Part shown: positions 20,132-37,380 of the stretch, in pieces
Numbering within the stretch: position 1 is the stretch's first letter
Layout of the letters: each line of letters starts with the position of its first letter
Origin: a virus
Lineage: Duplodnaviria; Caudoviricetes
DNA length: 63,134 nucleotides
Strand: one strand, 5' to 3'
Virus record (IMG/VR): IMGVR_UViG_3300044946_000158
Coordinates: 1 to 63,134 of that record
The notes under the pieces: model-generated
Seen by the model: the letters and a program-made list of their open reading frames with translations, nothing else
Told to the model about the DNA's origin: nothing
Databases searched by the model: none
Position numbers and translations under genes: made by a program

Positions 20132-20529
20132 TCGACCTCCAACCCACCGGGGTCGCCCATGACATATACAGGCTCGTCTAGTCGCTTCATTCCGCGTGCC
20201 TCGCACAACTTTTCCGAATGGCGATTGGCGGCGGTGGTAATCCATCCCCGTGCTTTCGCGTCAGTGAGAAACGTAAGCATCTCATCCGCGAGTTCTCCGG
20301 CGATAGTCGTGCCGCGATATTCCGGCCTCACATACAGAGGGCCGCAAAATGGGACCAGCTGGAACACATGGAACCCGATAATCTGGCCCGCTTCTTCCTT
20401 GACGAGAATGCGCGACGTGGCTCGATTAAGGCTCATCCATCCCCGCGACGCGAGCATCTCCTCGATAGCATCCCAGTCTTCCTGCGATGCGGTCGGCCCG
20501 TCTATCCAGCGCGTGGTTATGTCATTCAT
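20128..20529 (-). CDS. GNAT-fold acetyltransferase-like protein
   Basis: GPLYVRPEYRGTTIA acetyl-CoA motif A; lies between tail and ejection genes. Confidence 0.7.
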   Translation of the reverse strand: MNDITTRWIDGPTASQEDWDAIEEMLASRGWMSLNRATSRILVKEEAGQIIGFHVFQLVPFCGPLYVRPEYRGTTIAGELADEMLTFLTDAKARGWITTAANRHSEKLCEARGMKRLDEPVYVMGDPGGLEVE

Positions 20530-23315
20530 TTTATGGTCACCGTGATTTCCAGTCCCCCCGGCACAGTCAGCACATAATCCCCCTTGGCCAGTCCGGGAAG
20601 AGACACCATGGCCGCAGATAGCGGCATCTTGCACTTGGTCACGCCCGGCCCGTAGCTGCTGCAGGCCATCGCGAATACCCACGGCAACGGCGCCGGCACA
20701 GGACTCACCGCTACGCCTGTGCCGGTGAGCGTAGTGGAAGCCGTGGCGCTACTGGACCCATTGACCGTGAGTGTGGCGGTCTCGGCTCCCGCGAGGCTCG
20801 GCTTGAACGTCAGGATGATAATACACGTCTGACCCGCCGTCAGCACTAGTCCATTCGTGCAAGTTCCGGTCGCGGTATCGGTCCAGTCCGCAGCGTTCGT
20901 CCCCGACAGTACACTCTTCGGCGTGGCCAGCGTGACGCTCCCGGTGCCCGCGTTGGTCACCGTCGCAGTCGTGGCCGCGCTCACTTGCCCCACGGTTACC
21001 GCGCCGAATAACATGGTCGGCGTCGGCGCGATGGTCAGCACGAACGTGGGCGCTTGTCCGTTTACCGTCAGGCTGGCGCTGGCGGTCGCACTGGTAGCCG
21101 ACAGCGTCACTGTTGCTGATTCCGCTCCACCAGTACTGGGCGTAACCTGCACGCCTTTGTTGCAGGTCTGCCCCGGCGTAAGCACCTGTCCACCTTGGCA
21201 ATTGTTGGTCGCGGCACCTAATGAGAAATCCGCCGCATTGGGACCCGAGAACGTGGTCGTAACTGGCGCGGCCAAGGTCACGTTTATATTTCCCGTGTTG
21301 GTCAGCACGAAAACCTCGACCGCGCTGGTGGTACCCTGCGGCACCGTGCCGTAGCTCCAAGTCCCCGGTGTGAGGCTCATGGACGCGCTTCCCGCGCTGG
21401 TGCCCGTGCCCGTGAGGCTCACCGATCCCGAGGCGTTTCCGTTTATCGTTAGCGTGGCCGATTCCGCTGCCGTCGTCACCGGAGTGAACACCACTAGCAC
21501 CGTACAACTCCCACCGGGCGTCACCGTTCCGTTATTGGCGCAGGTCCCGCCCGAGCGCACGAAGTCTGCCGCGTTCGCACCGGAGAAGGTATAAAACGAT
21601 GCCGACAGCGTCAAGTTGGCGGTGCCAGAGTTCGTGACTGTGACCGTCAGTGGCGATGACGAGGTATTCTGTGTCTGGTTGCCGAACGCGACCGGACTAG
21701 GTGTGATGCTGACCGCCGGGGAGCCGCCACCGCTGCCGTAATTCACCGCTCCCACGGTAACCGTTCCGCTGCCACGAGCGTTTCCATTGATGTCCAGCGG
21801 CAGATACGTCGCCACCGCCGGGATGCCAGAGCCGCTCGCTAAGGAATTTAGATTCGTGCCCATGACTACCGCTGAGTTTCCAGGCACGAAGGTGGTGAGG
21901 TTCACGGAAGGATTGGTGCCGCTTAGTGAGTTGGCATCACAGGAACAGAAACTCTTCCAAGTGGTAAAGCTGGTAGTGAATCCGCCAGTATAAGCCCACT
22001 GCGCCAAAGGACTAGAGTAGTACAGATTGTAGTTAGCGGTCGGAGCGTTAGTGTTGCCACCATTATAAAAATAGTATCCGCCGCCGCTTTGCAGGATGTT
22101 GTTTTCCTCCGTCCAGCCGGTGCCGAATTCCATATTGAATAGCGGCCATGCGTTGTTGTTATTCCCGCCCGACCCGGCGTCGATGATGGTATTGTTGAGC
22201 AGGTATCCGTTATTGATTCCCAGCGGAGCCACGACGCCGTTGGCCGTCGCCACATCCGTATTGGTTTTGTAGAAAACGTTGTTGAATACCCACCACGGAG
22301 CCATTGTTCCGCCGCTGCCACCGTTGTTGTTTTCCAAGTAAATCATCGAGGTGGGATGCAGGCCCACGTCCCCGATACTGAAATTGTCGAAGAAGGTCAG
22401 ATTCCCGGCGAACGCCGCCCCTGGATGTCCGGTGAAGGGATGGAAGAAATTGTGGTGGTAATTATTGGTGACATCGTCCCAGTTGCGCGAGGCGTTGTAG
22501 GTGTTGTGGTCCACCTGCATGTTGGTCAGTACTTTCGTGCCGGTGTCGGTCGGTCCGCCCTCGATGGCTTGGTTGGCGTTATTGAAAGTGTTCCCGGTAA
22601 TGACCAGATTGGATTCGCCGCCTGTGAACGCGAAGAATATGCATACGTCGCAATCGGTAAAAGTATTTCCGGGTCCGACAGTAACGTTGCTGCCGCCTTG
22701 CAGGACCCGAACTCCCATGCAGTCGTCGCTGCCGTTGGAGCACACGCTGTCGGAAGTGGTGTTGTTGTGCACGTACACGGGGCCAAGATGTAGATGTTCA
22801 ATTTGAATGTTCGATGAGCCAAAGGCATCAACCATAGAGCTAATTTGCTGATTGGCGAGGCCCGTGCCGTTGGCGGTATTTCGGACGATACCGTTCGTGC
22901 CGCCGTCGATCACCACCCAGTTGTGCCCGTTGGTCTCGATAGCTCCTGGCGTGCCGTTACTAGTAGAGAAATACGGGGCCTGTACGATGGCGTTGGTGTC
23001 CCATTTGAGGGTAATCAGGTGTCCACTAGTGCCATCACCCTGAAAAGAAAATACGTTGGTAGCTCCTGCCGCAAAGGTGAATGTTCCGCAGATAAGTACT
23101 GTTGTGCCCGGCCCGATCTGCCCCGCACCAGTGCCCCAATTCGCAGACGTGTTGAAGAACGCTGGCGTTTGCACGCTAGTGGTACACGCGCCGGATGCCG
23201 CACCGGACTGCGTAATATAAATGTTCGCGGCCTGCCCACGCGCTCCCGCCGCCGCTGCGAGTGCCACTGCAACGAGTACGAAGGCCTTAAGACTGCAGGA
23301 AGCAGCTTGACTCAT
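20526..23315 (-). CDS. right-handed beta-helix protein with three ASH/choice-of-anchor-D Ig domains and a signal peptide
   Basis: Signal ...AAAAGARG|Q; Asn-ladder beta-helix; 3x FG...VTN.G...SG.NAADF...C...PG..C. Confidence 0.8.
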   Translation of the reverse strand: MSQAASCSLKAFVLVAVALAAAAGARGQAANIYITQSGAASGACTTSVQTPAFFNTSANWGTGAGQIGPGTTVLICGTFTFAAGATNVFSFQGDGTSGHLITLKWDTNAIVQAPYFSTSNGTPGAIETNGHNWVVIDGGTNGIVRNTANGTGLANQQISSMVDAFGSSNIQIEHLHLGPVYVHNNTTSDSVCSNGSDDCMGVRVLQGGSNVTVGPGNTFTDCDVCIFFAFTGGESNLVITGNTFNNANQAIEGGPTDTGTKVLTNMQVDHNTYNASRNWDDVTNNYHHNFFHPFTGHPGAAFAGNLTFFDNFSIGDVGLHPTSMIYLENNNGGSGGTMAPWWVFNNVFYKTNTDVATANGVVAPLGINNGYLLNNTIIDAGSGGNNNNAWPLFNMEFGTGWTEENNILQSGGGYYFYNGGNTNAPTANYNLYYSSPLAQWAYTGGFTTSFTTWKSFCSCDANSLSGTNPSVNLTTFVPGNSAVVMGTNLNSLASGSGIPAVATYLPLDINGNARGSGTVTVGAVNYGSGGGSPAVSITPSPVAFGNQTQNTSSSPLTVTVTNSGTANLTLSASFYTFSGANAADFVRSGGTCANNGTVTPGGSCTVLVVFTPVTTAAESATLTINGNASGSVSLTGTGTSAGSASMSLTPGTWSYGTVPQGTTSAVEVFVLTNTGNINVTLAAPVTTTFSGPNAADFSLGAATNNCQGGQVLTPGQTCNKGVQVTPSTGGAESATVTLSATSATASASLTVNGQAPTFVLTIAPTPTMLFGAVTVGQVSAATTATVTNAGTGSVTLATPKSVLSGTNAADWTDTATGTCTNGLVLTAGQTCIIILTFKPSLAGAETATLTVNGSSSATASTTLTGTGVAVSPVPAPLPWVFAMACSSYGPGVTKCKMPLSAAMVSLPGLAKGDYVLTVPGGLEITVTIK
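20716..21720 (-). repeat. three tandem ~110-aa ASH-type Ig domain repeats (coding)
   Basis: Repeated SGxNAAD(F/W), CxxGxxLxxGxxC and ExATLT motifs. Confidence 0.75.
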
Positions 23316-24549
23316 AATTTGTGCCTGTCCCGTCCAGATAAATAAAACATGTGCGATTCTGTGCCATAGCCAAGGTGGCCCCGCCGTCGATAGTGGATGT
23401 GGCAGGCGTGATCGTCACGGTCCCCGCGCCCTTGTTCTTAATCATGAATATGAAGCCCTGCGCGAACCCGGTGGTCCCGGCTTGCGGTAGCGCGACGGCC
23501 ACCGCGCCCACGTTGTTATAGGTAACCCGCCCGCCACGGTCCGCCGCGAGGATCGTGTCGCTCGTAACCGTGACGACACGCACCGGCACGCCGCCCACGA
23601 TAAATTGGGTGAGCGTCCCGACGCCCCCGGATGGCGTGGACGCCAGATACTGCGGCACGCCGTTGACTCCGGTCGGTGCGGCGATGCCCGACAATTGATT
23701 GTTCACGCCCGCACCCGAGTAATACGCAATGGCGAACTGCTGCGCAGTGTTCAAGGTTCCGGTGAGGCACGCGGCGCTGCCCTGCTGGCCCACGGTGCCG
23801 GACCACGTCGCACACTGACCGTTCACTGGCACGCCGGAGGTCACCCACGGCAATACTCCGGTTGCGCCGTTGATGCCCGCGACCAGCCGATTCCCGGTGG
23901 TGTCATAGGCCAGCAGCGCGCTAGTGGTCGGGGCGGCCCCAGCGGAGTTCGGCAATTTCAGAGTCGCAAGGGTGAAATCCTGCAGCCCGGTCGAGTACGC
24001 GTTGGCTTGGTCGGTGTAGACATGGGTAGCCAGTTCGCGGGACTTCGCGAGCGTGCCGGTCCAGCCCAGTGTGAGCGTCTGAGCAGCGATGCTGCCGGTG
24101 ACATTGGTGTCGTTGGCGACCGCGTTCACCACGGTGCTCGGGAGCATGGCCGCGACGATGGAGCAGAAGCTAGGCGTGGCGGACCCAGTGGTGCAATTGG
24201 CGAATACCGTATCCGCCGTCGCATTCGAGAGCGCGAAGCTGAGCGCGGGCGTGGTAGTCGCGGTGGCCACGCTGGTGGTAAACAAGGGTGAGAGATTCCC
24301 GGCGCTGAAACTAGTAACGGTGCCACCTACGCCGCCACCGACAGCCGTCCAAGTGTTAGTAGCGGTACAGGTCTTGAGGCTCGCGGAGGTGGTGTCCCAG
24401 ATAATCGGCTCCGGCTGGCCCGCGACTGCTGGCGTGCAGCTCGGCAGCGGCTCTTGCCAGGAGCGCACCAGCGTGAGAGTGCCCTGCGCGTGCGCGAGCG
24501 ATGGGAGCAGCAGCACGACAATCACGATGATAAAGATTGATTTACGCAT
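23287..24549 (-). CDS. tail-fibre-like protein with signal peptide
   Basis: MRKSIFIIVIVVLLLPSLAHA|Q; GGTVTS, TTTPAL fibre motifs; C-terminal LP..G...IKNKG...IDG domain. Confidence 0.7.
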   Translation of the reverse strand: MRKSIFIIVIVVLLLPSLAHAQGTLTLVRSWQEPLPSCTPAVAGQPEPIIWDTTSASLKTCTATNTWTAVGGGVGGTVTSFSAGNLSPLFTTSVATATTTPALSFALSNATADTVFANCTTGSATPSFCSIVAAMLPSTVVNAVANDTNVTGSIAAQTLTLGWTGTLAKSRELATHVYTDQANAYSTGLQDFTLATLKLPNSAGAAPTTSALLAYDTTGNRLVAGINGATGVLPWVTSGVPVNGQCATWSGTVGQQGSAACLTGTLNTAQQFAIAYYSGAGVNNQLSGIAAPTGVNGVPQYLASTPSGGVGTLTQFIVGGVPVRVVTVTSDTILAADRGGRVTYNNVGAVAVALPQAGTTGFAQGFIFMIKNKGAGTVTITPATSTIDGGATLAMAQNRTCFIYLDGTGTNYESSCFLQS

Positions 24550-24552
24550 TTG

Positions 24553-24957
24553 CTAATTATTACCTATGACATCGTAGCTCGTGCCGTTATTTTGCACTCT
24601 TACATACTGATATTGATTCAGGAGCACGTAACCCGCCAGCCCGTCGATGGTCGCGATTACATCAATGACTCCGACCGCCGCGTCCACCTTTTTCACCGTG
24701 AATATCTTGCCCACCGGGATGCTCCCCGGCGCGGGCAGCGTGAGCGTGACCGTTCCAGTGCCGGAGCTGCCGCGATACACCACCTCGGGGAATATGCTGG
24801 CGATTGCGGCGGTATTGACGTTGAAAGCCACGTTGGTGGCCGCGCCGAGGCTGTCAAGAATCGCGAGGTCGGCGTTCAGCTCGCCGCCCCAGATATTCAA
24901 ATCACCCCCCACGGTAGGTACTACTAAGTTAAGTATCGGAGTCGGTGGACCCGGCAT
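24553..24957 (-). CDS. small tail-associated protein
   Basis: SD GGGAG; LNLVVPTVG...WG..LN....LD N-terminus typical of phage fibres. Confidence 0.65.
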   Translation of the reverse strand: MPGPPTPILNLVVPTVGGDLNIWGGELNADLAILDSLGAATNVAFNVNTAAIASIFPEVVYRGSSGTGTVTLTLPAPGSIPVGKIFTVKKVDAAVGVIDVIATIDGLAGYVLLNQYQYVRVQNNGTSYDVIGNN

Positions 24958-24967
24958 CTCGTCTCCC

Positions 24968-25399
24968 CTAGAAAATCAGCAGGGTAATCTGCCCCGCGTC
25001 ATTGGCGTTGTCCGCATCCAGCGAGTAGCGATACGGATTAAACGCATTTTTTACCAGTGCCGCCGAGCCTAGCACACCGGTCTGCCCCGGTGGGATGGTC
25101 AGCACGATAGCGCCGTTGTCCGCGCGATTCCCGGTGCCCGCGCCCACTCCCTTACGTACCAGATACACGTTGCCGGCGTTGTTGACCATCGGCGAGTTCC
25201 CTTTCATGCCCTGTACCACGATCTGGTTGCAGGCGACGGTGTACTCGTCCGTGGTCGTGCTAGTGGGCGTGGACGGCGAGCCTGCCGCAGCCGGGTCCAC
25301 CAGCGACATAATCGGCACGGGCGTACCCGGCGTGGGGACCACGATGCTGCCGAGCGGCCAGTCGGGGCCTTGTTTATCGAGATGAACGGAGTTAGCCAT
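24968..25399 (-). CDS. putative structural protein
   Basis: SD GAGGAG; beta-rich, N.GNVY motif. Confidence 0.65.
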   Translation of the reverse strand: MANSVHLDKQGPDWPLGSIVVPTPGTPVPIMSLVDPAAAGSPSTPTSTTTDEYTVACNQIVVQGMKGNSPMVNNAGNVYLVRKGVGAGTGNRADNGAIVLTIPPGQTGVLGSAALVKNAFNPYRYSLDADNANDAGQITLLIF

Positions 25400-25452
25400 C
25401 GTGTCTCCTCGCGAACAGCAGCAAACTCAAGAATAGATTTTTCATGTGACTC

Positions 25453-27729
25453 TCAATTAATAATCCAATAATTCCAGCAGGTCTGTCCGGTGGTAGAAGT
25501 CTCTGTGAGCGTGAAGCTGGTTCCCGCTACAATTGCCGACACCACAGGCTCGGCGGTGATCGTCGGGACCACGCAGGTGGGCGCAGATGGCAGATTCCCC
25601 ACATAGGTACGCGGGGTGATGATAATAACGCTGTTGAGCGTTACTGCTGTGGTGTTGACCGTATAAGTTGCAGTAGTGGTAGGGATGACAAATGCACCGC
25701 TGGCTGCAGAGCCACAAGCTGCAGGAGACACTGAGTTAACAGCACAAGCAGTCAGTGTGCTGTAAGTGTTACTGACAAAATCCCCAGGGATGGCCCGATT
25801 AGGACTGCCAACGCTATTGGTCGTCTCTGCGGTAAGATTTCCACCCACCCAATTCGAAACGGAAGTCCGGTTTAGCACATTGGACTGTGCACTGATGCCG
25901 GGATAGCCGCCGCTAAGCGTAGCATCCACCGCAGTGAGGTCCTTGATGCGCGTGCCGCCGCTGGGCGTGTAATAAGCGTTGAGCGTTGTCCCTACGTGGT
26001 CTAATTCGATGATGTCACCAACTCCGCAACCGCTGGCGGCTGGTGTCTGTATCAAGAGTGTTGCGGCATTGGCGACGATTTTATAGATAGCCCGGTTAGG
26101 AACCGCTCCGCCGGAGGTACTGCATACGTATTTGTAAGCGGTACGGGTGGATGGGAAGCCGCTTGCGCCAGCCGGAACATTGGTCAGGACTCCGACGGTA
26201 TCTGCGGCATTTATTCCGGTAACTTTGACTTGTGAGAATTGGTCGTTGTTGACAATCAGCCCTTGATAAGCGGCCATATTGTCGGAAGCCGTTGCAGTGA
26301 CCGGAGTGACTGTCGCGGAATTTACCCCCAGTAACGCTCCGCAATTACTGGAACAGCTTACCCATGCGGGTGCGAGTGTCGCCGCGTTGCCACCAAGGAA
26401 ATTGTCAAACACGGTGGGATTCGGCGTAGTCAGCGGAGTATTGGATTGCTGTTTGACGAATCCTGATCCGCCACCCGATGCCGCGTTGGAGAAGAGTGCG
26501 CCCGGATAAATGTTCGTTCCACCTATACCAGCGTTGACGGATTCGTAGTTGATCGTTCCCGAGCAGTAGCCAGGATTCGTTTCCGTGAAATTGTTGACGC
26601 GCGCGAAGGCTGTAGAGGTCAGTTGTTCGATGTCGTAGGTAATAAAATTGATCGTACAGCCTCGCGACATGTTCGCGCCAAAGGTCCACCCATTGATACT
26701 CTCTTGATCGGTGAACTTGGTCCAAGTGCCGGGGTGGGTAATCGGATGGGAAGCCTGTACAATGCGGCCAAGGATGCCGACGTTGGAGCACAATAACCCC
26801 GAAGCGGCAAATCCTACCGAATGTTCAGACTCGACGTCATAGCAAATGTCCGCGCCTTCCGCCCAAGTCTCTTGGAACCATTGCCAGTTGTTGTGGTTGT
26901 TCTGTGTGGACGTGAACGCGATAAGCCGATTGGTTCCGGCTACGGCTGGAGAAATCAAGGGAGTATTGGGAGGACCCCACCCAGGAGCCATGACCGCTAA
27001 AACGTTTTGATAGTGAACTGTAGCAGCTTCATACATGCAAAACCCGCACTCGTTTCCGCGCTGGTTGTCCACGCCCTGAAAGCCGATGTTCTCGAAAAAT
27101 ACATCATTACCGATACTGTTCGTGGTATCAGGGCGATGCCAGAAATAGGCAATCATGTTGGTGCTGGCCCCGGCAGCGGTGCGGGCCGCAGCGGTAGCTT
27201 TGAAAATGACTCCCTGCGCGTTTTGCACTCCACCGATAGCCGCCACAAATGGGGCCTGCTCACCGATTAGACGCCATTGGCAATATTGATTCGCGCTCCC
27301 GGCGTTGGCGGGGAAGGCGATGCTGTAATAGAGGCTTCCGGCTTGAAGAATGTTAGTTGCAGACGATTCCAGTGTGGCCGAACTTATAAGGTAGGTTCCG
27401 TTTTTGAAGAACAGTGTGCCGCACGTTGAAGCATTCGCATTGATGACATTATTTAAGACAACCGCGATGTCGGTCCCGGTGTAATCGACGGTTCCGGTTT
27501 TGTTGTTTACCGCGCTGATGGTGCCTGCGGATACGGTAAAGGTATATAGGGAGCTGGGGCTGCCGCCAAACGTACCTCCAACTACACCGCTCCCAGAGCC
27601 GCCGCCTGACACATTAGACTGTCCCCCGCCCCCGACGCCCGTCTGACCATACGACAGTGCACTGGTCAGCATCGCCAACAGGATTATTAGGACAATGGGC
27701 CAAGCGCGTTTCATAATTGGTCTGAGCAT
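25453..27729 (-). CDS. tail-spike-like beta-helix/lectin protein with signal peptide
   Basis: MKRAWPIVLIILLAMLTSALSYG|Q; GTLFFKNGTY pectate-lyase-3-like start; many Cys pairs. Confidence 0.7.
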   Translation of the reverse strand: MLRPIMKRAWPIVLIILLAMLTSALSYGQTGVGGGGQSNVSGGGSGSGVVGGTFGGSPSSLYTFTVSAGTISAVNNKTGTVDYTGTDIAVVLNNVINANASTCGTLFFKNGTYLISSATLESSATNILQAGSLYYSIAFPANAGSANQYCQWRLIGEQAPFVAAIGGVQNAQGVIFKATAAARTAAGASTNMIAYFWHRPDTTNSIGNDVFFENIGFQGVDNQRGNECGFCMYEAATVHYQNVLAVMAPGWGPPNTPLISPAVAGTNRLIAFTSTQNNHNNWQWFQETWAEGADICYDVESEHSVGFAASGLLCSNVGILGRIVQASHPITHPGTWTKFTDQESINGWTFGANMSRGCTINFITYDIEQLTSTAFARVNNFTETNPGYCSGTINYESVNAGIGGTNIYPGALFSNAASGGGSGFVKQQSNTPLTTPNPTVFDNFLGGNAATLAPAWVSCSSNCGALLGVNSATVTPVTATASDNMAAYQGLIVNNDQFSQVKVTGINAADTVGVLTNVPAGASGFPSTRTAYKYVCSTSGGAVPNRAIYKIVANAATLLIQTPAASGCGVGDIIELDHVGTTLNAYYTPSGGTRIKDLTAVDATLSGGYPGISAQSNVLNRTSVSNWVGGNLTAETTNSVGSPNRAIPGDFVSNTYSTLTACAVNSVSPAACGSAASGAFVIPTTTATYTVNTTAVTLNSVIIITPRTYVGNLPSAPTCVVPTITAEPVVSAIVAGTSFTLTETSTTGQTCWNYWIIN

Positions 27730-27744
27730 ACCCTTTTCCTCGTA

Positions 27745-28026
27745 CTAGGACACCTTAAAAGTACCATTGACCTTGTCCCATTTTAGTGTCGCGCCGTTCG
27801 CGAGCTGCGACGTGTCGATGGGAGCCACGTTCACGCCGAGAAATTTCGTGGTCGCGGGGCCGGAAGTGGATGCAGCAGGCGCAGCGGGGGATGCTGGAGC
27901 GTTCGCGGGCAGTGCGGCGTTCACGCGGTCCACCAGCGCGTAATGCTGGTCGAGCACCTGCTTCAGTACGCGATGCGCGTCCTCGGGAGTTTTCAGGTCG
28001 GATACGTTCGGGTAGTAACGATTCAT
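27745..28026 (-). CDS. hypothetical tail-region protein
   Basis: ATGA overlap with the nozzle-like gene. Confidence 0.65.
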   Translation of the reverse strand: MNRYYPNVSDLKTPEDAHRVLKQVLDQHYALVDRVNAALPANAPASPAAPAASTSGPATTKFLGVNVAPIDTSQLANGATLKWDKVNGTFKVS

Positions 28027-31000
28027 ATGCGGGCCTCATCGCCGCCAGCGTCCCCGATCAGCGGCTTGTTCATGTACGCGTCCTCGCGGCCCCACGCTCC
28101 GACCAGCACTTCACTCTTATCGGCGTAGCACTGGAATGGCAGCGCAGACGACATCCTGTAGGCGTACAACTGGCCCTTGTTAGCGGTCACTGGAAACACA
28201 ATCTTGACCACGCCGCCGCCCGTGGACGGCAACGTGATCGGCGCGGGCGACACGCCATCATACGCGGTGATGGTAAATGTAACGGGCGCGACCGCCGCGT
28301 AGGTGATGCTGGTCTGACGAATGTGCATGTACCCGCGCAGGCCATGGGTGCTTGGTTGCGTCTGCCAAGTCTCGGCTACCTCGGGCGTCTCTTCGTAGAG
28401 CCATTTCACGCCGAACAATTTCCACAGCAGCAAATCCGTCGGCTCAATCCGCACCTGATGCGCGATGAACGGCGGGTCGAACGAATACGCGCGCTCGCTC
28501 TCGCCGTTATGCTGCACCGCCGTGCTGAACGGGTGCGCCGTAAGGCCGTCGGAATCCCGCACCAGCAGGCCTTTAATCGCGTTGAAGGTGTCCGCCACCA
28601 TGATGAATCCTTGGAACCATTTTGCGCCAGTGTATCCCGCGTCGTCCCAGTCGGTGAAGCGGTCGGCGATGATTTCCGGCTGCGTGATAAACGACGGCTG
28701 CCACGTATGCAGCCGGGTCGCGGTGGCTTGCCGAGTGAAGTCATCCGTCCAGGTAAACAGGAGGCCCATGTACACGGCGTATAACGCGCCTCCGAGTGAT
28801 ATCGGCTGCTGCTTGCGGGTGAACGATTGCGTGATGATTTGTGCGGGCGCGACTGCCACTCCGAGCGACATCGGCGTGATGGTCAGCGACGCGGACGCAG
28901 CCGCAGGGATGGCGTCAAAGAACATATCCCCCCACTGGTCGCCCACGCGCAGGTCGCCAGCGTCGAATTCCCTTGTGTACACGGCACAGGCAATCGGCCC
29001 GCCGATATCATTCGCGAGGTCCTGCTGGCCCGCCACCTGCCCGGACACATTGCCCATGAGGATCTCGTCATAGAGTTGGGGATTCGATGGCGTTAGGTTG
29101 CTGGGCACTTGGTCCACGCGCACGACCGAGGTTACCGCCGGAGTATAATTGTCGATACTCCACGCGCCGGTGCGGGTGTCGAGCACCAGCATGCGATAGG
29201 TAGCGAATATGTCGATGTACGTTGCATAGAGATAGCCGTTTGAATAGGCCAAGCGGAAAGACGCAGCTTGCGAGTAAGCCGGCGGGTAGATGGTTACTGG
29301 GCCGCGCACAATGGTCTCGCCGAGCACGCCCTCGTGCGGAAAGAGATTCGAGAGGTCGGCGGAAGTGAGCGAGCCGGTGCTGCTACCGACGATGCCGTCC
29401 TTGGCCCAGAAGTATACCTGCTTGCCATCGTTACAGTGTCCCAGCGGGGCCGCGAGCCCGCGGTCAATCGGCTGGTCCTGAATAGCGTAGCGCTGCGATG
29501 GATTGTCAGGCTGCGGAATCAGTCCCCACCAGCGGTCCGAGGAGCCTACGAACGAGCGACCGTCGACGATTTCGCCACCGAGCAGCGGCTCCGACGGCTG
29601 GCAGATTTCAAGGTTGTATTTGTCGGGCGCGGCGTCTGGCGCAAAGTTTTTACTGAAATACAGGGTGCCGGGCCGCAGCGGATCGCCGCACGCGAAAATA
29701 GTCCCATTGGCGTCCGGTCCCCACACATACGGAAGAAACTGCTTCGCGATAGCGGGCTCATAGATGGACAGGAACGAGTTCTGGCTGAATCCCGCATTCT
29801 CAACGAATTGGAACAGGTACACGCCGGGCTGCCCCGCGACCTCCGTAGGTCGGGTCCATAACGTATACACATTCTGGTTGTCGATACGCACGAGGTTACC
29901 TGGTAGAAACCGCGTCACGTTGGCTTGCGCAGACGCGGGAACAGCCACTAGTGCGGTGGTGCCGGTGACCGCAATGGCGATGCTGGTGTTGAACACGAAC
30001 GGCACGTCTATCGAGGGCCACGGCTCGAAGTTATCGGTTTCGAGTGCGTCCCCGGCGCGCGCCGCCGCGTCGTCATAGTTATCAACGAAGATGGTATTCG
30101 AGATGGTCAGCCGATGGGAGCCAATGAATCGCCATTCGGTGACGCTGCCGCCGTAGCGGAAGATGTCCCAAGTGTCGAAGCCGGCGACGGTGGTGGTGCC
30201 GGGAACCGATACGTTCACCGATTGCCGCCGCGGGGAGATGCCATAGCGCGGAATCGGCGAGGCGTTGCCCTTCGCGCCGGTGACCGATGACCGCGGCCGG
30301 ATGCGATACATATACGGCGCGCCTGCGTTGCCCACGTCTGGCAACGAGCCGCCGAGGACCGCGATGGTGAAATCATGCTCGATGGCCCCGGCAGCCGGAC
30401 CGATGATATTCCATTGGAAGCGCACCGACACGAGGTTCTGCAAGGTCAGCGCTTCGGCTGAGCCCACACGGGTCAGCGCGCTGATCGGGATAAATAGCTG
30501 GGTCCACGCGGAGTTGCCGACGTTCATCTGCTGCGACGGGGCGGCTACGGTCTGTCCGTCCGCGCTCGCGGCGGATTCGGCGTCGATAATCGCGCGCTGC
30601 TCGATGGTCTGGATAATGGATAGTTGCGTGACCGTGTTGGCAACCGCGCCGGTGAGGTCCGAGGGCCGGATGGTGTAGTAGTAATAATCGCTGTCGTAAT
30701 TCCCGTCGGACACGTCGAACAGGATCTTGGCCTCGATGAGATTGGTCGGGTCGTTTACCAAGACCGCGAACGAAATGTAGTCATCGGGGCGGAAGGACCG
30801 GCCCGCGATGGTGAAGAGTCCGGTCAAGGGGGCGGTGGCGGTGCCGATGCCAGCAGCTACCGAATAGCTGATTTCCGTTTCGCTAATGACCGCGCCGCCC
30901 GTGGGGGCGACTGCGCCTGCAATTTGCTCCACTTGAATCGCGCCGAGAATGGTAAAGGTGGCTCCCGCGAGGTAGGTGTTCGCGGTGGAGGTCTCGATGG

Positions 31001-31961
31001 CGATGGAACCGTCCGGCCCGGCGGTCACCGAGAGTACGTAGACGATTTCACCAGTGGATTGGAACTGGATAAGCGCCCCGCGCCGCAAGGACGCGAGAGT
31101 CTCGGGAGAGTAGAGGCTCTCACCGCTTTTCCCGGCTGAGAGATTCGGGGTGACCAGCACGCAGCGTCCCGAGGACCCGGCATAGTAGGCCACGGCTACG
31201 ATGGCAATCGGCGTAGGCAGCGACGAGTACACGTCCTCCACCCAGAATTTATTTCCCGCCGCGCCGATTTGTATCACCATGCCGCGATCATAGAGCGAGG
31301 TGGTCTGAATGGGGATGGTGTATTGATAGCCATTGGGGTCGGCGATGACGCCCGTGTGCACGAAATCTAGTGTGCGATAGCTGGAGGTAAGCGCGGATGC
31401 GGTGCCGCCGAGCGTCCACGAGCCCTGCGCGATGCTGGCCACGTTCGCAATGGGCGGCAGGGCCACGGCCTCGCTGGGTATCTGTGGCTCGGGAATGCCC
31501 ACGGGCTCGACATCCACGAAGTTCGCGAGACCTCCGAAGCCCGGAGCCGATACCTTCTGATAGTCCGCGCCGTTGGCAATGTACATGTACGGATTCGGCG
31601 ATTCATTGGGGCGAAACGGCAGCATGCTGGCGCCCCCGATGGCGGTGGGGCCGGTGGCGAGGGTCGCAACCTGCACGCCGATGTCAAGCCACACCGCGCC
31701 GAGAGCGTCGACTGCAAGCGTGCGCGGCTGGTCCTGCGTCTTGATGGCCGCGTAGGTGCGAAGGTTTAGTATCGGCTGGCCTCCGGTGGCGAACCGCAAG
31801 GCCTGCCCCGGCCGCGTCTTGATGTTATTGTCGCTGGTCCCGCGCACGTTCTGGACGATGGCGTATTTATCCGGCGGGAGCGCATCCGGGGATACGTTGG
31901 TCTTGAGGCCGCCGAGGTGGAAGCGGAATGCATCGTTGGGGCGCTGGAATTGTTGGGCCAT
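28023..31961 (-). CDS. putative tail nozzle/tubular protein B (beta-propeller)
   Basis: 1312 aa; GGL.T...P..LPP....VQNVR...I.TRPG N-terminus typical of podovirus stabilisation/nozzle proteins. Confidence 0.6.
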   Translation of the reverse strand: MAQQFQRPNDAFRFHLGGLKTNVSPDALPPDKYAIVQNVRGTSDNNIKTRPGQALRFATGGQPILNLRTYAAIKTQDQPRTLAVDALGAVWLDIGVQVATLATGPTAIGGASMLPFRPNESPNPYMYIANGADYQKVSAPGFGGLANFVDVEPVGIPEPQIPSEAVALPPIANVASIAQGSWTLGGTASALTSSYRTLDFVHTGVIADPNGYQYTIPIQTTSLYDRGMVIQIGAAGNKFWVEDVYSSLPTPIAIVAVAYYAGSSGRCVLVTPNLSAGKSGESLYSPETLASLRRGALIQFQSTGEIVYVLSVTAGPDGSIAIETSTANTYLAGATFTILGAIQVEQIAGAVAPTGGAVISETEISYSVAAGIGTATAPLTGLFTIAGRSFRPDDYISFAVLVNDPTNLIEAKILFDVSDGNYDSDYYYYTIRPSDLTGAVANTVTQLSIIQTIEQRAIIDAESAASADGQTVAAPSQQMNVGNSAWTQLFIPISALTRVGSAEALTLQNLVSVRFQWNIIGPAAGAIEHDFTIAVLGGSLPDVGNAGAPYMYRIRPRSSVTGAKGNASPIPRYGISPRRQSVNVSVPGTTTVAGFDTWDIFRYGGSVTEWRFIGSHRLTISNTIFVDNYDDAAARAGDALETDNFEPWPSIDVPFVFNTSIAIAVTGTTALVAVPASAQANVTRFLPGNLVRIDNQNVYTLWTRPTEVAGQPGVYLFQFVENAGFSQNSFLSIYEPAIAKQFLPYVWGPDANGTIFACGDPLRPGTLYFSKNFAPDAAPDKYNLEICQPSEPLLGGEIVDGRSFVGSSDRWWGLIPQPDNPSQRYAIQDQPIDRGLAAPLGHCNDGKQVYFWAKDGIVGSSTGSLTSADLSNLFPHEGVLGETIVRGPVTIYPPAYSQAASFRLAYSNGYLYATYIDIFATYRMLVLDTRTGAWSIDNYTPAVTSVVRVDQVPSNLTPSNPQLYDEILMGNVSGQVAGQQDLANDIGGPIACAVYTREFDAGDLRVGDQWGDMFFDAIPAAASASLTITPMSLGVAVAPAQIITQSFTRKQQPISLGGALYAVYMGLLFTWTDDFTRQATATRLHTWQPSFITQPEIIADRFTDWDDAGYTGAKWFQGFIMVADTFNAIKGLLVRDSDGLTAHPFSTAVQHNGESERAYSFDPPFIAHQVRIEPTDLLLWKLFGVKWLYEETPEVAETWQTQPSTHGLRGYMHIRQTSITYAAVAPVTFTITAYDGVSPAPITLPSTGGGVVKIVFPVTANKGQLYAYRMSSALPFQCYADKSEVLVGAWGREDAYMNKPLIGDAGGDEARI

Positions 31962-33808
31962 CAGGCGGCTCCATCCGTTGCGGATGCGGGCGCGGGCGCG
32001 AATCGCGGATGCATCTCCGCGTCCCGCTGCGATTGCGCGAAGATGACCGAGGTGTATTCGCCTAGTTCCGCGAGCTTCAGGCCGTAGGAGGCTGCGGCGG
32101 CGAGAAATCGCTGGAACAGGGGCAACGTCGCGGTGAATTCGAGTCCGCCCATCTTAAAGGCCGCGAGATGCTGGGCATAGTCGAGAATGGCGTCAAGGTC
32201 CCCACGCGATACCTGCAGGAAATCCGCGTCGCTAGCAGGCACAGGCGCGTTCTGCACCACCGTGGCGGTTATGGTATAAGGTCCGACATCCGACACAGGT
32301 GACACTGCGACGAGATTCAATCCCGCGTGATACGCGACTGTGGGCTGGCCCGGTGTATCGCGTTCCCAGCCGGTGTGGTAGAGGTCCCCGGCGGTGATGG
32401 AGTCGATTTGCAGCGGCACGTTCGCGACGCGCAGGGCCAAGAGTACGGAGGCCTTCGAGAGCAGGGCGAGGCCCATCTTGTAACGCTGGTTACAGTAGGT
32501 TGCGCGCGCGGGGTCCTTGGCGTTTGATTCGCGGGACAGCAGATCCGCGAGCGCTCCCCATTTGATGACGTGCGTCCAATCGTCGGGGACGGACAGAAGC
32601 GACGGATTGCCGACGGATAACGCGGGTCCCGCCTCTACGGTCAGCAGTTCGTAGCTGCCCGCGTAGCTCGGCGGCTGGTCGGTGTCGAACGATATCGGAG
32701 GCTCGGTCGATTGCAGGTACACGCTGGGCGCAGCGGGCGGCGTGCCAGCTGGCGTGAGCGTGTACTGGCGATTGAACGATGTCTCGGCGAAGCTATCCTC
32801 GGGCCACAGCACCGAGGCGTTGGCGCCCACGCGAATGTTGCCGCCGTATGGTCCGCCCGGAACGCCTGCGCTGCTGAAGCCGCCAGTGGAGACGTTTTGG
32901 GAAATGGTGAACGTGCCCGCGAGCATGGTCGGAGCGGATTCCGGGCCGCTGTAGAGCTGGGGTCCAGAATAATTAAAATCCTTTGGACCTATGACGGGTT
33001 GCGCTCGCAGCGACCCCAGCAGCGCGATGTTATAAAAGAAAAGGTAGTCATTGTTGACCGAGATGCCGTTGATAATGAGGTTCGGGATAGGCGGATTCAA
33101 ATAAAAGCTCTGGCCCAACGTGAAGCTGCTCGGTACCGGATTTATAGGAATGGTCCAAGAGGCCGTCAGCGGGAACAGACTAGAATTGGAGGTCAGCACG
33201 TAGTTCATGTTCGAGCCGGATATAGTAGCCACCAGCGTATAGGTCACCACAATCGGCTCGATGGTGCCTTGCGGAGTTGCGCCGCCATAGAGCCCGATGC
33301 CATAAGGCGTGCCTATGTTGATAGTGGGGAGGTACGCCACCCGGCGGATGTCGATGACTGAATCCGGCAGGAGCGTGCGTCCGGCGGCAGCAGGCACGAG
33401 GCGCACGGTCAGCGTGCAGCCAGTGACCGCCAGTATCTCGTCACGCCGCCGAGCGACTGCGTTCATGAAATCGTCCTGCGTGAATTGCAGGGAGGCTATA
33501 CCGGATGGCGGCTCCAGCAGGTGATAGGCCATGACGGAATAGAGGTCGGTGTCGTGCAGGGTCGGCAGACGCAGGGAGCCGGGCATCGCCACCGGGTCGG
33601 TGAAGTCGAAAAAGGTTACGTTCTGTTGCAGGGGAAAGGTGAAATCGTTGCGCCAATAGGAGGTGAGCGCATTCCATGTGCGCAATGCTTCCTGAATAAG
33701 CCCCGTGAGTTCGGCAGGCTGCCAAAAAGTTTGCGTACTATCAAACAGACGATTGGCGAGCTGTTGCCGCGCCGTGCCGAGAGTCGTGTATGTATATGCT
33801 GGTGCCAT
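31961..33808 (-). CDS. putative head-tail adaptor with ~150-aa inserted domain
   Basis: TL...RQQLANRLFD...FW...EL...I.EAL N-terminus and WGALADLLS motif typical of phage adaptors. Confidence 0.6.
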   Translation of the reverse strand: MAPAYTYTTLGTARQQLANRLFDSTQTFWQPAELTGLIQEALRTWNALTSYWRNDFTFPLQQNVTFFDFTDPVAMPGSLRLPTLHDTDLYSVMAYHLLEPPSGIASLQFTQDDFMNAVARRRDEILAVTGCTLTVRLVPAAAGRTLLPDSVIDIRRVAYLPTINIGTPYGIGLYGGATPQGTIEPIVVTYTLVATISGSNMNYVLTSNSSLFPLTASWTIPINPVPSSFTLGQSFYLNPPIPNLIINGISVNNDYLFFYNIALLGSLRAQPVIGPKDFNYSGPQLYSGPESAPTMLAGTFTISQNVSTGGFSSAGVPGGPYGGNIRVGANASVLWPEDSFAETSFNRQYTLTPAGTPPAAPSVYLQSTEPPISFDTDQPPSYAGSYELLTVEAGPALSVGNPSLLSVPDDWTHVIKWGALADLLSRESNAKDPARATYCNQRYKMGLALLSKASVLLALRVANVPLQIDSITAGDLYHTGWERDTPGQPTVAYHAGLNLVAVSPVSDVGPYTITATVVQNAPVPASDADFLQVSRGDLDAILDYAQHLAAFKMGGLEFTATLPLFQRFLAAAASYGLKLAELGEYTSVIFAQSQRDAEMHPRFAPAPASATDGAA

Positions 33809-34008
33809 CAGCCGCGTTTCGCTCCCGACTTGCGCCCAGACTTCTTGCTGCGTTTCTTCACGACGCCATTCGCGATACGCACGGCCTTACCTTCGTCGCC
33901 GGTCTTCGCGAGCACACTATTCGCTACGGAAGACCATTGCCTCTGCGACACGGCGCTAGAGGCTTTCTTCGTGTGCCTGCGCGATTCCTCGGGGTCCCAC
34001 GGCATCAT
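33808..34008 (-). CDS. small basic protein (MPW...HTKKA...W..VAN...A.R.ANGV)
   Basis: Tight packing; motif common in phage head modules. Confidence 0.7.
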   Translation of the reverse strand: MMPWDPEESRRHTKKASSAVSQRQWSSVANSVLAKTGDEGKAVRIANGVVKKRSKKSGRKSGAKRG

Positions 34009-34220
34009 TCATCCCCGAGATTACGCCCAGCGTGTCCAGCCCGCAGTTCGCGATTGAACCGCTCCACCACCGACTCGCCGTCGTGATGCTCGATGACATC
34101 GTCCATCGGCTCGTCGAGACAGTGCGGACGGGTGTCGAGGAACGGGCGCTTGGATGCGAACTCCGCCGCATATTCCTTGTCGCGAACGCCCGGACGATTC
34201 TGGTTCTTGGTATAAGCCAT
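34005..34220 (-). CDS. hypothetical protein
   Basis: SD AAGGAGG. Confidence 0.7.
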   Translation of the reverse strand: MAYTKNQNRPGVRDKEYAAEFASKRPFLDTRPHCLDEPMDDVIEHHDGESVVERFNRELRAGHAGRNLGDE

Positions 34221-34237
34221 GTTGCCTCCTTGAAATT

Positions 34238-36409
34238 CTATCCGCGCCCGCTACACATGATATTCGCGGTGTACTGCGTGCTGACCACGGGCGTTCCGAT
34301 GAAACTGATTATTGCCTGTGTCTGGGTGGTCGCAATATCCCAATAAGTCAGACCGGATGCGCCGTCACCACGTGAAATAGAACAGATCGGATTGGTGTTA
34401 ACCCACGCGCCGTCCTTGAACGTGACGGTAATGGTGGGATTGGCGGTGGGCGTTCCGGTACCAGCGGTTATCACTAAAACGAAAAGTGGGTCGTAACCAG
34501 AGACGGTTAGAGACGGAGAGGTGCCCCAGCCTGCGCTTAGTACCCCATCGATGTTGGCGAGTGCGGTTCCTTGGTTATAATAGGGTCGCTTGACCTTGGT
34601 CTGCGCGCCTGTATCAGTGATGCCTACAGCAGAAAGCGTGCTTGAGAAGGCTCCGGTAGTCGCTCCCAGAACCGGACCATTCACGGTAATTCCGCAGAAG
34701 CTAGCGGTGGCTCCCGCATATTTCACAACGCACCAGTTCGCGGTACCGTTCGTGTCGGTATTCGTGGGATATCCCAGGGAGGTGAGATTCTGGTTATTAA
34801 TCCACGCAACCGTGGCCTTAGTGCTGTTCGCAGTGATTCCACCAGACGCAAAGCAGCACATCCAATTTCGCTCGGCGGTCAAGGTTACCGCGGTATTGGC
34901 GTTGGAAGTACCGGAGATGGCGATATTGAATGGATAGGTGCTGGCACAAGTCCCCGCCGGACAACTAAGAGTATTGTCGCTAAAGATGAGATTACGCAGG
35001 GTCAGTTGATTGGTGCTGGTGTTGCTGATATGCAGGACCTGTTGATGCGGGTAAGCCACCGAGCCGCCGTCGAACACAATGGTGTTGTGATGAAAATTAA
35101 CATTATCGCCGAAAGTCAGCGTGGCAGTCGGATTGGCGTCGTCCCAATCTACCAGATAATCCTGCCGCTCCATGTTGGGGCAGTCGTGAACGTCGATGCC
35201 AACATTGTTGCCGCCCATCAAAAACGCAATAGTGTTTTGGAAGAACTGGCAATCGGCAATGTCCACGTTAGTCGCGCCTACGAGTTTCACAGCCACGCCA
35301 CCATTATCCGCGTACATGCTGTGACTGACTACCCCACCAGAGTTGCTGAAGTCATAGACCGTGGCGAAACCAGGACTGGTCGTGCTGGTAACAAAGACAT
35401 TGTCGAGTTCCACTTGGCTGCAATAGGTACATGCGATTCCCACGCCCTGGTTGCTCACGACAGTCCCGTTGATTAGGAAATTGCGTAGATGCACCCCGTA
35501 GATTGCACTCGTGCCATTGTTGATACTAAGAGCCGTGCCTGTGCCGGTGTATTTCAGCGAGGATACCGGAGCCGAGCCCGCACCGCCCTGCTCGACAGCA
35601 CCCTCGATCTGAACGGCTTGGGTGAAAGCGAGACCAGTCGCGTAGGCACAGGTTTGCGGGGGGAGTTTAAGGATGCCGCCAGCAGAAATGGCAAAGTTAC
35701 CCGCTGCTTGCAAAGCGGTGGAATCATTGGTGGTGCCGTCGCATACTGCACCGAATGCAGCAGCAGTAGGGTCCACCCACGGGTTAGGTCCCTTGAATGA
35801 CACGCTAGCGAGGAAGGAATTGGTGCCTGTGAATGTATTATTGAAGCCGAGAAACGCGGCGGTGGTGGCACAGGACCCAGCGGAGGAGGTGATCGGGCCG
35901 GTAAGCGCGGGCGTCTGTGCACAAGCGAGTAAGCCAGTGAGGTCCGCGAAATTAGGCTGCACGAACGCAAGCGTAGCCGGGGAAGAGGTATTGTTGCCGA
36001 AATAGAGATGCGGGCCGACTGTGCCGCCCACAAAGGTGCCCGTGTCAAACAGGGGGATGTCCGAGTAGGTTACGGGTAACGGGAAGCCCGCACCGGAGAG
36101 GGTAATATCGTAGCGTCCATTGGCGGCGTAAAACTGCCAGTGGCCGTTGGTCTGGGCAGTGAACGGGTTAGCGAGTATGGTGCCGACGTTGTCCGAGTAG
36201 ATGGGATTCGCCAGCCCGCCACCATGGACATAAATTGAGACGGTACAAGCTGGATAGGAGACCTGCACCTGCGTCGTAGAGTTCAGGCCAGCGGTCAGCA
36301 CGGGCTGCGCGCCGGACTCGCACCAGCCTTGATAATTCGGCAGCGCCGACGCGAGCGCCGGGCACGCGAGCGCCACGAGTACTAGCAGCAGGTATCGCGG
36401 GCGCATCAT
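34238..36409 (-). CDS. tail spike with signal peptide, virion-binding N-domain and beta-helix
   Basis: MMRPRYLLLVLVALACPALASA|; IYSD.....ANPF......FYAANGRYD; FGAVCDGTTNDSTALQAA spike motif. Confidence 0.8.
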   Translation of the reverse strand: MMRPRYLLLVLVALACPALASALPNYQGWCESGAQPVLTAGLNSTTQVQVSYPACTVSIYVHGGGLANPIYSDNVGTILANPFTAQTNGHWQFYAANGRYDITLSGAGFPLPVTYSDIPLFDTGTFVGGTVGPHLYFGNNTSSPATLAFVQPNFADLTGLLACAQTPALTGPITSSAGSCATTAAFLGFNNTFTGTNSFLASVSFKGPNPWVDPTAAAFGAVCDGTTNDSTALQAAGNFAISAGGILKLPPQTCAYATGLAFTQAVQIEGAVEQGGAGSAPVSSLKYTGTGTALSINNGTSAIYGVHLRNFLINGTVVSNQGVGIACTYCSQVELDNVFVTSTTSPGFATVYDFSNSGGVVSHSMYADNGGVAVKLVGATNVDIADCQFFQNTIAFLMGGNNVGIDVHDCPNMERQDYLVDWDDANPTATLTFGDNVNFHHNTIVFDGGSVAYPHQQVLHISNTSTNQLTLRNLIFSDNTLSCPAGTCASTYPFNIAISGTSNANTAVTLTAERNWMCCFASGGITANSTKATVAWINNQNLTSLGYPTNTDTNGTANWCVVKYAGATASFCGITVNGPVLGATTGAFSSTLSAVGITDTGAQTKVKRPYYNQGTALANIDGVLSAGWGTSPSLTVSGYDPLFVLVITAGTGTPTANPTITVTFKDGAWVNTNPICSISRGDGASGLTYWDIATTQTQAIISFIGTPVVSTQYTANIMCSGRG

Positions 36410-37380
36410 GCCGGACCCGCCGTGCCGGAGAGCGTCGAGTAATGCGGCACCCACATGCGCTGCAGGTGATGGATGGAATAGTAATTGTCCACCAGTTCCT
36501 TGTCCTGACGGCGATACTGGATGAGCAGCTTTTTGTATTCGGAATCGGCCGCGCCCATGAGGAACCGGAAATCCGGCCCCGAGGATCGCGGGGACATGTC
36601 CTTGTTGGCCTCCGCCCATTCGTAGGCGAAGTAGCGGGCCTTCGCGAGTACCAGGGCCTCGTCGATGGATGGCGGCAGCGCGTCCGTCAGGTTCACGAGG
36701 TCCGTGCCGCGGCGCAGGCCGTAACACTGATACGTGTAAGGTGAGATGGGCTGGCCCCAGAGTTCGAACATCGGCCAGCCCAGCGTTGGCGAGCCGGGAC
36801 GCTGGTCGGTGCCGAGGGACACGATAGCGGTCGGCTGCGCGACCCACGAGCGCTGCGGGTCCGACTCGTCGAGCATCGCCCGAGTCATGGTCAGGTCCAG
36901 GTAATCGGCCCACGCGAGATTGCGCACCGAGATCCAAGTGAGAAAGTCGGACATCGGCGGCGTGTAGTAGGCCTGGTACACGGAATAGGCGATTGCGGTC
37001 CCGCCAAGATCGTCCATCGGGCGGTCCAGCGTGGCGGTCGAGACTTGGTCCCATGCGATGATGGAGTAGATGCCTGCGATGCCGGGCGACGCGCTGGGAC
37101 GGAACTGGCGCTGGGTGACGAGCGACACGAGTGATGAGGAAGCGTTCAGCGCGGCGGTCGCGGTCGCATCGAAGATGACTGTGTTCGCGCCCTGCGTGGT
37201 CGTGACCGTGCCTGCGTTAACCAGCGGCGGCGATACTAGGGATGATTGAAAGAGGTTAAAAGACCACAGGTGCGATTCGCGGACGGCCCGCCATGCGCGA
37301 TTTATTAATGTGCGCGAAAATGCGAATGGAATCTTAGGTACGCTGCCACGTAGCTCAGCTTGCATATCCCCGAATGCCAC
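36406..37380 (-). CDS. putative adaptor/neck protein
   Basis: INRAW..V.....WSF...GTVT motif; located after the capsid genes. Confidence 0.6.
   Translation of the reverse strand: MAFGDMQAELRGSVPKIPFAFSRTLINRAWRAVRESHLWSFNLFQSSLVSPPLVNAGTVTTTQGANTVIFDATATAALNASSSLVSLVTQRQFRPSASPGIAGIYSIIAWDQVSTATLDRPMDDLGGTAIAYSVYQAYYTPPMSDFLTWISVRNLAWADYLDLTMTRAMLDESDPQRSWVAQPTAIVSLGTDQRPGSPTLGWPMFELWGQPISPYTYQCYGLRRGTDLVNLTDALPPSIDEALVLAKARYFAYEWAEANKDMSPRSSGPDFRFLMGAADSEYKKLLIQYRRQDKELVDNYYSIHHLQRMWVPHYSTLSGTAGPA

Follow-up and report, generated by a model that had tools for sequence, protein, structure and literature searches.

Secretion leaders and paired cysteines on four tail-module proteins of a podophage related to Acidobacteriota phages

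We analyzed a 63,134-base stretch of viral DNA (hereafter the window), which is the whole of the virus record IMGVR_UViG_3300044946_000158 and represents a complete podophage genome. We focused on four open reading frames (ORFs) of its tail module, designated A (723 amino acids; 34238..36409), B (758 amino acids; 25453..27729), C (420 amino acids; 23287..24549) and D (929 amino acids; 20526..23315), all of which were found on the minus strand at the positions given in the initial annotation of this DNA. That annotation had proposed that the four proteins are exported and folded with disulfide bonds in the periplasm, and our results make it likely that A–D are indeed exported and disulfide-folded outside the cytoplasm. 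We regard this as probable because all four proteins combine secretion signals with paired cysteines. The claim was supported in silico by the conserved character of the leaders, by a boundary of similarity at the predicted +1 residue, by a bias towards even cysteine numbers and by the presence of DsbA and VKOR in the host genus. Assembly of the virion in two compartments is the best single explanation of these observations, although we consider it as likely to be wrong as right. The phage is distant kin of Tunturi_1 and Tunturi_2, which are Acidobacteriota podoviruses of tundra soil origin according to the available text of their description (PMC11924767).

Leaders of the four proteins and their conservation

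Leaders were called with a heuristic that we wrote ourselves, based on n-, h- and c-regions and the -3/-1 rule, together with alignments. Sec-type leaders had been claimed for all four ORFs, and they were borne out at constrained start codons. In each leader, a charged n-region is followed by a hydrophobic h-region and a c-region of small residues, ending in ASA/L in A, SYG/Q in B, AHA/Q in C and ARG/Q in D (the slash marks the predicted cleavage site). The leader of A comprises residues 1-22 (MMRPRYLLLVLVALACPALASA; 36344..36409, minus strand as for the other three) and is predicted from an alignment of 80 homologues to leave a mature protein starting with LPN. The leader of B spans residues 1-28 (27646..27729), ends in LTSALSYG and precedes a mature start of QTG; that of C spans residues 1-21 (24487..24549), ends in LPSLAHA and precedes QGT; and that of D spans residues 1-27 (23235..23315), ends in AAAGARG and precedes QAA. 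All four fit the pattern of Sec/signal peptidase I substrates (positive n-region, h-region of 7-15 residues, small residues at -3 and -1), with two deviations from the norm, namely a long h-region of ~17 residues in B and a single Lys in the n-region of D. No lipobox ([LVI][ASTVI][GAS]C with Cys at +1) was present in the four leaders; Cys is absent from the surroundings of the cleavage site in B, C and D, and Cys16 of A stands in the context A-L-A-C at a position that is not conserved in its family. Among the C-type fibre homologues in related loci, the leaders of two (L003, 19080-21485; L045, 18998-21394) end in a lipobox-like LSGC, and judging by this motif some C-type relatives may be lipoproteins rather than substrates of signal peptidase I.

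The start codons leave little room for other N-termini. A begins at an ATG that overlaps the stop codon of the upstream gene for a 324-amino-acid adaptor-like protein (ATGA), stops lie 17 nucleotides before the start of B and 4 nucleotides before that of C, and the D ORF overlaps C by 29 nucleotides. No suitable internal start yielding a leaderless form was found in A or D, and no clear ribosome-binding site precedes the internal starts of B (Met20) and C (GTG28). The stored gene call for B begins at Met20, inside the leader, and so cuts it. In none of A–D would a true start downstream of the hydrophobic stretch, which the initial annotation had named as a possible refutation, remove the leader yet keep the conserved N-terminal sequence.

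The heuristic scan flagged 8 of the 76 ORFs in the window, and a score of ≥5 was reached by B, C and D and by three ORFs outside this set. A was missed because the scan used the longest ORF as the start; read from 36409, it gives the same n/h/c pattern as B–D. With A counted, leaders were present in 4/4 of the proteins under study versus 3/72 of the others (Fisher p = 2.7e-5). Capsid, portal, adaptors and nozzle had been described as leaderless, and the scan agreed, raising no flag for the portal, the capsid protein, the nozzle or either of the two adaptor-like proteins. The same was true of the core-like ORFs of 25 related loci (0/119 under the strict and the loose rule alike) and of the structural coding sequences of the phages Tunturi_3 and Tunturi_4 (0/51 at score ≥5).

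A survey of related genomes, which the initial annotation had suggested as a check, revealed that relatives keep a leader of the same character while its sequence changes. For each of the four proteins, the stretch that resembles relatives begins with the predicted +1 residue. Read by eye, Tunturi_1 gp12, gp13, gp14 (annotated as a tail spike), gp16 and gp17 carry the same type of leader (with 20, 10, 21, 2 and 32 Cys, respectively), and residues 28-121 of A align with gp12 immediately past the gp12 leader. A search with the first 130 residues of A recovered 80 proteins of 398-1237 amino acids, in whose alignment the leaders drift freely and conservation sets in a few residues before a GWC motif. 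When the mature A domain was used as the query, which is free of leader bias, 3459 clusters matched at E ≤ 1e-3, and the domain started at residue 20-35 in nearly all of the top 150 matches. A leader was present in 170 of the 194 members of the pooled A-domain family (~88%); among the rest, 15 start with a Met no more than 2 residues from the predicted boundary, as would be expected if the leader is removed there, and 9 have short or cut N-termini.

The other three proteins gave similar pictures. Homologues of B carried a leader in 13/15 cases, P0206 and P0208 share sequence with B from +1 onward, and P0209, a different protein of 562 amino acids on another contig, has the leader and Gly-rich linker of B at 100% identity, indicating that the leader travels together with the linker as a module. 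The C homologues P0212 and P0213 align with C from +1 onward, and locus L003 displays the same boundary pattern. D and its relative in locus L036 have unrelated leaders, after which they read QAANIYITQSG and QAANVYVTPTG, respectively.

Cysteine pairing and signs of disulfide folding

The mature proteins contain 18 (A), 16 (B), 8 (C) and 16 (D) cysteines. The motifs named in the initial annotation were all recovered: CPAGTC and ACAQ..SCA lie in A, CSSNC lies in B, and a C-x11-C pair occurs in each of the three Ig-like domains of D. Sequential cysteines were significantly closer to each other than under random placement (p = 0.004 for A, 0.016 for B, 0.008 for C and 3e-5 for D).

Even cysteine numbers accompany the leaders. 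In the A family, mature leader-bearing proteins with even and odd counts numbered 132 and 27 (p = 4e-18), compared with 9 and 9 among leaderless ones. In the C family, the even-to-odd counts were 45:12 with a leader and 15:17 without, and cysteine density was 1.5% versus 0.48%. Across related loci, 28/34 leader-bearing proteins had an even count. Such a bias is described in the available portion of PMC2823432 as an accepted mark of disulfide-bonded exported proteins. The Cys30/Cys55 pair of A was present in 162/170 leader-bearing family members versus 4/15 leaderless ones (Fisher p = 5e-10); this suggests an association of the leader with the pair, and no more than suggests it, because a tree-aware test found just 3 independent pairs on supported branches and was underpowered. 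The genome of Tunturiibacter gelidiferens, a species of the host genus and not the phage's own host, encodes matches to VKOR (75 bits) and DSBA (111 bits).

A further proposal, that +1 Gln might be converted to pyroglutamate, found no support. Gln occupies +1 in three of the four proteins and Leu in A, and the glutaminyl cyclase family PF05096 was not found in the Tunturiibacter genome. Gln was also seen at +1 in 6/30 leader-like host N-termini, a small and crude sample with too few cases for a rule. The idea that export might hide the proteins from cytoplasmic defence sensors is likewise unsupported.

Tail parts or free exported proteins

Protein A consists of the leader, a conserved tail-anchor-like N-domain and a variable, Cys-rich body that is possibly a beta-helix. 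The N-domain (residues 23-122; 36044..36343, minus strand) is a beta-sandwich with the Cys30-Cys55 pair and a putative tail-docking domain. An AlphaFold2 model of the first 130 residues reached a mean predicted local distance difference test (pLDDT) score of 91.8 and placed a leader helix at residues 4-19 ahead of the beta-sandwich, whereas the full-length model (pLDDT 56) was confident in the N-domain alone. The top PDB fold match of the N-domain model was a chain of the Pan3 tail complex (Z 8.2; root-mean-square deviation (rmsd) 2.3 over 78 residues), followed by a chain of the Pam1 tail complex (Z 7.8; rmsd 3.5 over 88 residues). Matches in BFVD were phage proteins named pectate-lyase, tail spike and exopolysaccharide (EPS)-depolymerase (E down to 8e-7), with the similarity to the tail spike and pectate-lyase proteins falling at their N-termini, and a profile of the N-domain matched none of the PDB sequences. 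The domain heads proteins of 127-2038 amino acids, some of them fragments, and remains at 50-75% identity over varying and unrelated C-termini. Within the cultured-phage collection it occurs only in Tunturi_1 and Tunturi_2. A complex prediction for the 324-amino-acid protein and the mature N-domain of A scored 0.00 and, having been run with no controls, weighs neither way.

The claim that the four proteins contain spike or fibre motifs held in part. C, which matches phrog_15797, is built from its leader, a small N-module with a Cys pair, fibre-like repeats and a C-terminal domain; its C-terminus matches an annotated T7-like tail fiber, and its N-module is shared with proteins of L003 and L005. 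D, which matches phrog_18474 and has a Cys-rich N-terminal body, three HYDIN/ASH-type Ig-like domains and a small C-terminal domain behind its leader, exceeded the cut-offs for the Ig-like HYDIN/Cep192 families PF22073 and PF22544. The pectate-lyase-like match in the body of A (PF12708, 25.6 bits) fell below the family cut-off of 27. B combines its leader and Gly-rich linker with a Cys-rich body holding its 16 Cys, and neither B nor D had a match in the cultured-phage collection. By eye, a leaderless 134-amino-acid protein (24553-24957) and the C-terminus of C look alike in a beta-rich ...TIDG...Y... motif, and the two may share a fibre-tip domain.

A search with a nozzle profile yielded 26 related contigs. 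In 16 related loci, 1-4 accessory tail proteins of ≥300 amino acids bore leaders; in 9 loci none did, three of these (L002, L053 and L055) being truncated or cut at the contig end. In most fibre sets, leaders went together with a high Cys content, or a lack of leaders with a low one. The A-type protein had a leader in 9/9 leader-type loci that possess one and was leaderless in 3/3 leaderless-type loci (L046, L048 and L050). In these three loci it contains 1, 2 and 10 Cys, respectively, and is encoded beside the adaptor and nozzle. The nozzle tree requires at least 3 changes of the leader state, or 2 when two truncated loci are left out. As far as sequence can tell, fibres with and without a leader are exchangeable forms of one tail part, because the A-type protein is leaderless in these sister loci next to adaptor and nozzle, and for A at least this interchange speaks against a simple moron reading. 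The earlier assertion that the proteins are virion parts rather than host-surface morons thus gained indirect support for A, with its tail-complex-like N-domain, varying C-termini and leaderless fibre equivalents, and less for B and D, which could be free enzymes. In L046 (9713-14730) and L048 (9995-14823), the nozzle homologue seems split into ORFs of ~430-520 and ~1150 amino acids.

The strongest competing explanation, which we judge unlikely, accepts export and disulfide bonding and denies A–D a place in the virion. They would be enzymes that are free in the periplasm or secreted, or proteins on the surface of the infected cell, and would strip exopolysaccharide or receptors for release, block superinfection or keep progeny off debris, while host binding by the virion would fall to other proteins that lack a leader, such as the 143- and 134-amino-acid products at 24553-25399. 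The 143-amino-acid protein is indeed homologous to Tunturi_1 gp33, which is annotated as a tail fiber protein, and B and D have no detected anchor domain. Ig-like domains of the HYDIN/ASH type, as in D, are frequent among secreted proteins of bacteria. There is also a precedent for a secreted bacterial enzyme built on a tailspike fold: Pantoea stewartii WceF has a signal peptide, a fold like that of phage tailspikes and activity on exopolysaccharide (PMC7949094). WceF, however, is a chromosomal bacterial enzyme with no virion role, whereas the genes for A–D belong to a phage tail module and A has a tail-anchor-like domain. A free enzyme would have no obvious need of an N-domain that stays similar over unrelated C-termini and resembles tail-complex chains. 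Sister genomes carry this domain in a leaderless, Cys-poor gene between adaptor and nozzle, and the relatives are mostly all-leader or all-leaderless rather than equipped with a leaderless set plus leader-bearing extras.

Several observations weigh against the view that A–D are exported tail parts. The leader calls come from our heuristic and alignments rather than from a dedicated predictor (SignalP) or an experiment, and the available text of the paper on the cultured relatives (PMC11924767) contains neither "mass spectrometry" nor "signal peptide" and offers no virion proteomics for the lineage. A recognisable tail-anchor domain was not seen in B or D. The N-domain of A is a common beta-sandwich, so that unrelated CnaB- and transthyretin-like domains reach Z 6-7.4, and the protein identity of the matched chains (9vyg_o and 7eeq_A) is not confirmed. 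Leader-bearing genes with the N-domain also occur in two Acidobacteriaceae chromosomes, which suits free enzymes as well (L007, 9995-12442, Granulicella sp. S156; L008, 9953-11212, Tunturiibacter gelidiferens). The few independent pairs in the tree-aware test, mentioned above, belong here too. Finally, the podovirus Tunturi_3, which shares the host strain of Tunturi_1, has leaderless, Cys-poor fibres, as does the siphovirus Tunturi_4, and the leaderless fibres of Tunturi_3 indicate that this host does not require export.

It is rather improbable that the leaders are uncleaved or slowly cleaved signal anchors, which would keep the fibres tethered to the inner membrane up to the point where its potential is collapsed by the holin, in the manner of signal-anchor-release (SAR) endolysins, and let them join virions afterwards. 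SAR endolysins are described in the available text of PMC6116005, and a holin-triggered release would explain the timing of docking. The Ala-rich hydrophobic region of D (AFVLVAVALAAAAG) resembles a SAR domain, and the hydrophobic stretch of B is long. The leaders of A, B and C, however, are rich in Leu, Ile and Val; those of A and C, like most in the family, run over 12-15 residues and are followed by a canonical AxA site, and the Met of leaderless relatives lies within two residues of the predicted cleavage site. Very improbable is the idea that the N-termini are unused for export, owing to a wrong start, a shut-off of Sec by the phage or fast folding, and that the proteins assemble in the cytoplasm with cysteines oxidised only after release: the stored call for B at Met20 and the leaderless family members, from which it follows that the N-domain can function leaderless, fit it, but upstream stops or gene overlaps pin down where A, C and D start, the identical full-length leader of B is called in P0209, leaders persist in hundreds of diverged homologues despite sequence drift, and the even-Cys bias goes with leader presence.

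Gene neighbourhood and possible two-compartment assembly

The genes for TerL, the portal, the major capsid protein and the 324-, 615- and 1312-amino-acid proteins lie on the minus strand in an order collinear with Tunturi_1, at 29-37% identity. The 324-amino-acid adaptor-like protein (36406..37380), encoded directly upstream of A, is a homologue of Tunturi_1 gp11, annotated as a tail protein; the name SU10_adaptor came as a lead from ESM Atlas, and no match to the protein was found among PDB sequences. The 615-amino-acid adaptor-like core protein (31961..33808) has 2 Cys and no leader, matches PF24175 under the cut-off and is kept in relatives. The 1312-amino-acid nozzle-like core protein (28023..31961) has 6 Cys and no leader and is 37% identical to Tunturi_1 gp31. 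An HNH endonuclease gene (44310-44843, minus strand) lies between the portal and terminase genes, and the head module of Tunturi_1 likewise contains an HNH gene. On the plus strand, 6967-10299 encodes a 1110-amino-acid protein that joins a uracil-DNA-glycosylase-superfamily domain to a family A DNA polymerase domain. Counts of promoters and terminators across 20-38 kb were not above those in shuffled sequence. The G+C content is lower in B (0.540) and A (0.564) than in the genome (0.592) and higher in C (0.633), an unevenness consistent with fibre modules being exchanged horizontally.

Just upstream of the A-type gene, several leader-type relatives carry additional genes (L037, 534-5737; L044, 3291-5430; L042, 1512-2486; L003, 4513-5499), and by eye some of their N-termini resemble sugar-nucleotide or methyltransferase enzymes. 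A recurrent family of ~325 amino acids (MKFLLPxGIGDSVWALHK...) is also found upstream of the A-type fibre gene. One possibility suggested by these resemblances is that the upstream genes of the four loci serve glycosylation of the virion or of the exported proteins.

The endolysin (Peptidase_M15_4; 12585..13031, plus strand) has no leader and should therefore be able to reach the wall only after a holin-type opening of the inner membrane. The surrounding region (10251-13031, plus strand) is a possible lysis cassette that also encodes a 97-amino-acid membrane protein, a 188-amino-acid protein with a clear leader (MKTLLVIALLAMLAGTVKA/D) and a 204-amino-acid protein whose N-terminus contains a twin-arginine-like NRREF motif; none of these three proteins had a Pfam match.

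Tailed phages are taken to assemble wholly in the cytoplasm, and to our knowledge tail fibres have no signal peptide and fold there. If A–D are receptor-binding or depolymerase tail proteins with working Sec/signal peptidase I leaders, assembly would take a different course. Late in infection, the four proteins would be exported to the periplasm and their leaders cut at AxA/x, after which host DsbA/VKOR would oxidise their sequentially paired cysteines. Assembly of the heads and of the core of the tail (portal, adaptors, nozzle and ejection proteins), none of which has a leader, would meanwhile proceed in the cytoplasm. Once the holin breached the inner membrane, the cytoplasmic and periplasmic pools would mix, and the pre-folded fibres would dock on the tail, A by means of its N-terminal beta-sandwich domain. 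Attachment of fibres or spikes is generally the last step of podophage assembly, and P22 tailspikes, which attach last, can also join heads in vitro, which makes it physically plausible that exported, pre-folded fibres dock late. We infer the actual export of A–D, the cleavage of their leaders, their disulfide bonds, their presence in virions and the timing of their docking; docking on virions after lysis, in particular, is a reasonable inference, though unproven.

The proposed fibres share features with several known systems. As in podophage fibres and tailspikes such as T7 gp17, P22 gp9 and those of Pam1 and Pan3, a conserved N-terminal docking domain would be joined to variable receptor-binding or depolymerase bodies, and the genes adjoin those for adaptor and nozzle. 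They differ from these in the Sec-type leader of ~88% of the 194 sampled family members, in the conserved Cys pair and in the even number of cysteines. The g3p of Ff phages is a receptor-binding protein with a cleavable Sec leader that forms periplasmic disulfides before it enters the virion, and A–D resemble it in the leader and, by prediction, in the disulfides. Ff virions, however, are extruded through the envelope, whereas an icosahedral tailed particle with cytoplasmic DNA packaging must here meet the exported fibres. Tailed phages do send lysis proteins through Sec before lysis, including Lys44 of fOg44, SAR endolysins and spanins, as set out in the available text of PMC6116005, in which "signal peptide" is confined to the section on endolysin export. 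Those proteins are lysis effectors, unlike A–D, which are proposed to be virion parts. Full-text literature searches, which mostly did not extend to subscription journals, gave no description of Sec leaders on tailed-phage fibres.

Extended beyond this genome, the proposal is that a large group of soil podophages builds its virions in two compartments, with capsid, DNA and tail core put together in the cytoplasm and the full fibre set exported by Sec, oxidised by DsbA/VKOR and docked after holin action, and with at least 2-3 switches between cytoplasmic and periplasmic fibre production; the domain family concerned has thousands of members. We hold this broader form tentatively, at slightly less than an even chance. 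Since Tunturi_1, Tunturi_2 and their host strain (T. psychrotolerans X5P2) are in culture, the idea is directly testable. It bears on the annotation of viral "carbohydrate-active auxiliary genes" in soil metagenomes, many of which may be exported tail spikes, and, if it is true, recombinant fibres and depolymerases from such phages would need periplasmic or oxidising expression. Exported, disulfide-stabilised fibres would then represent a new step in the assembly of tailed phages and would explain oxidation-hardened adhesins suited to acidic soils.

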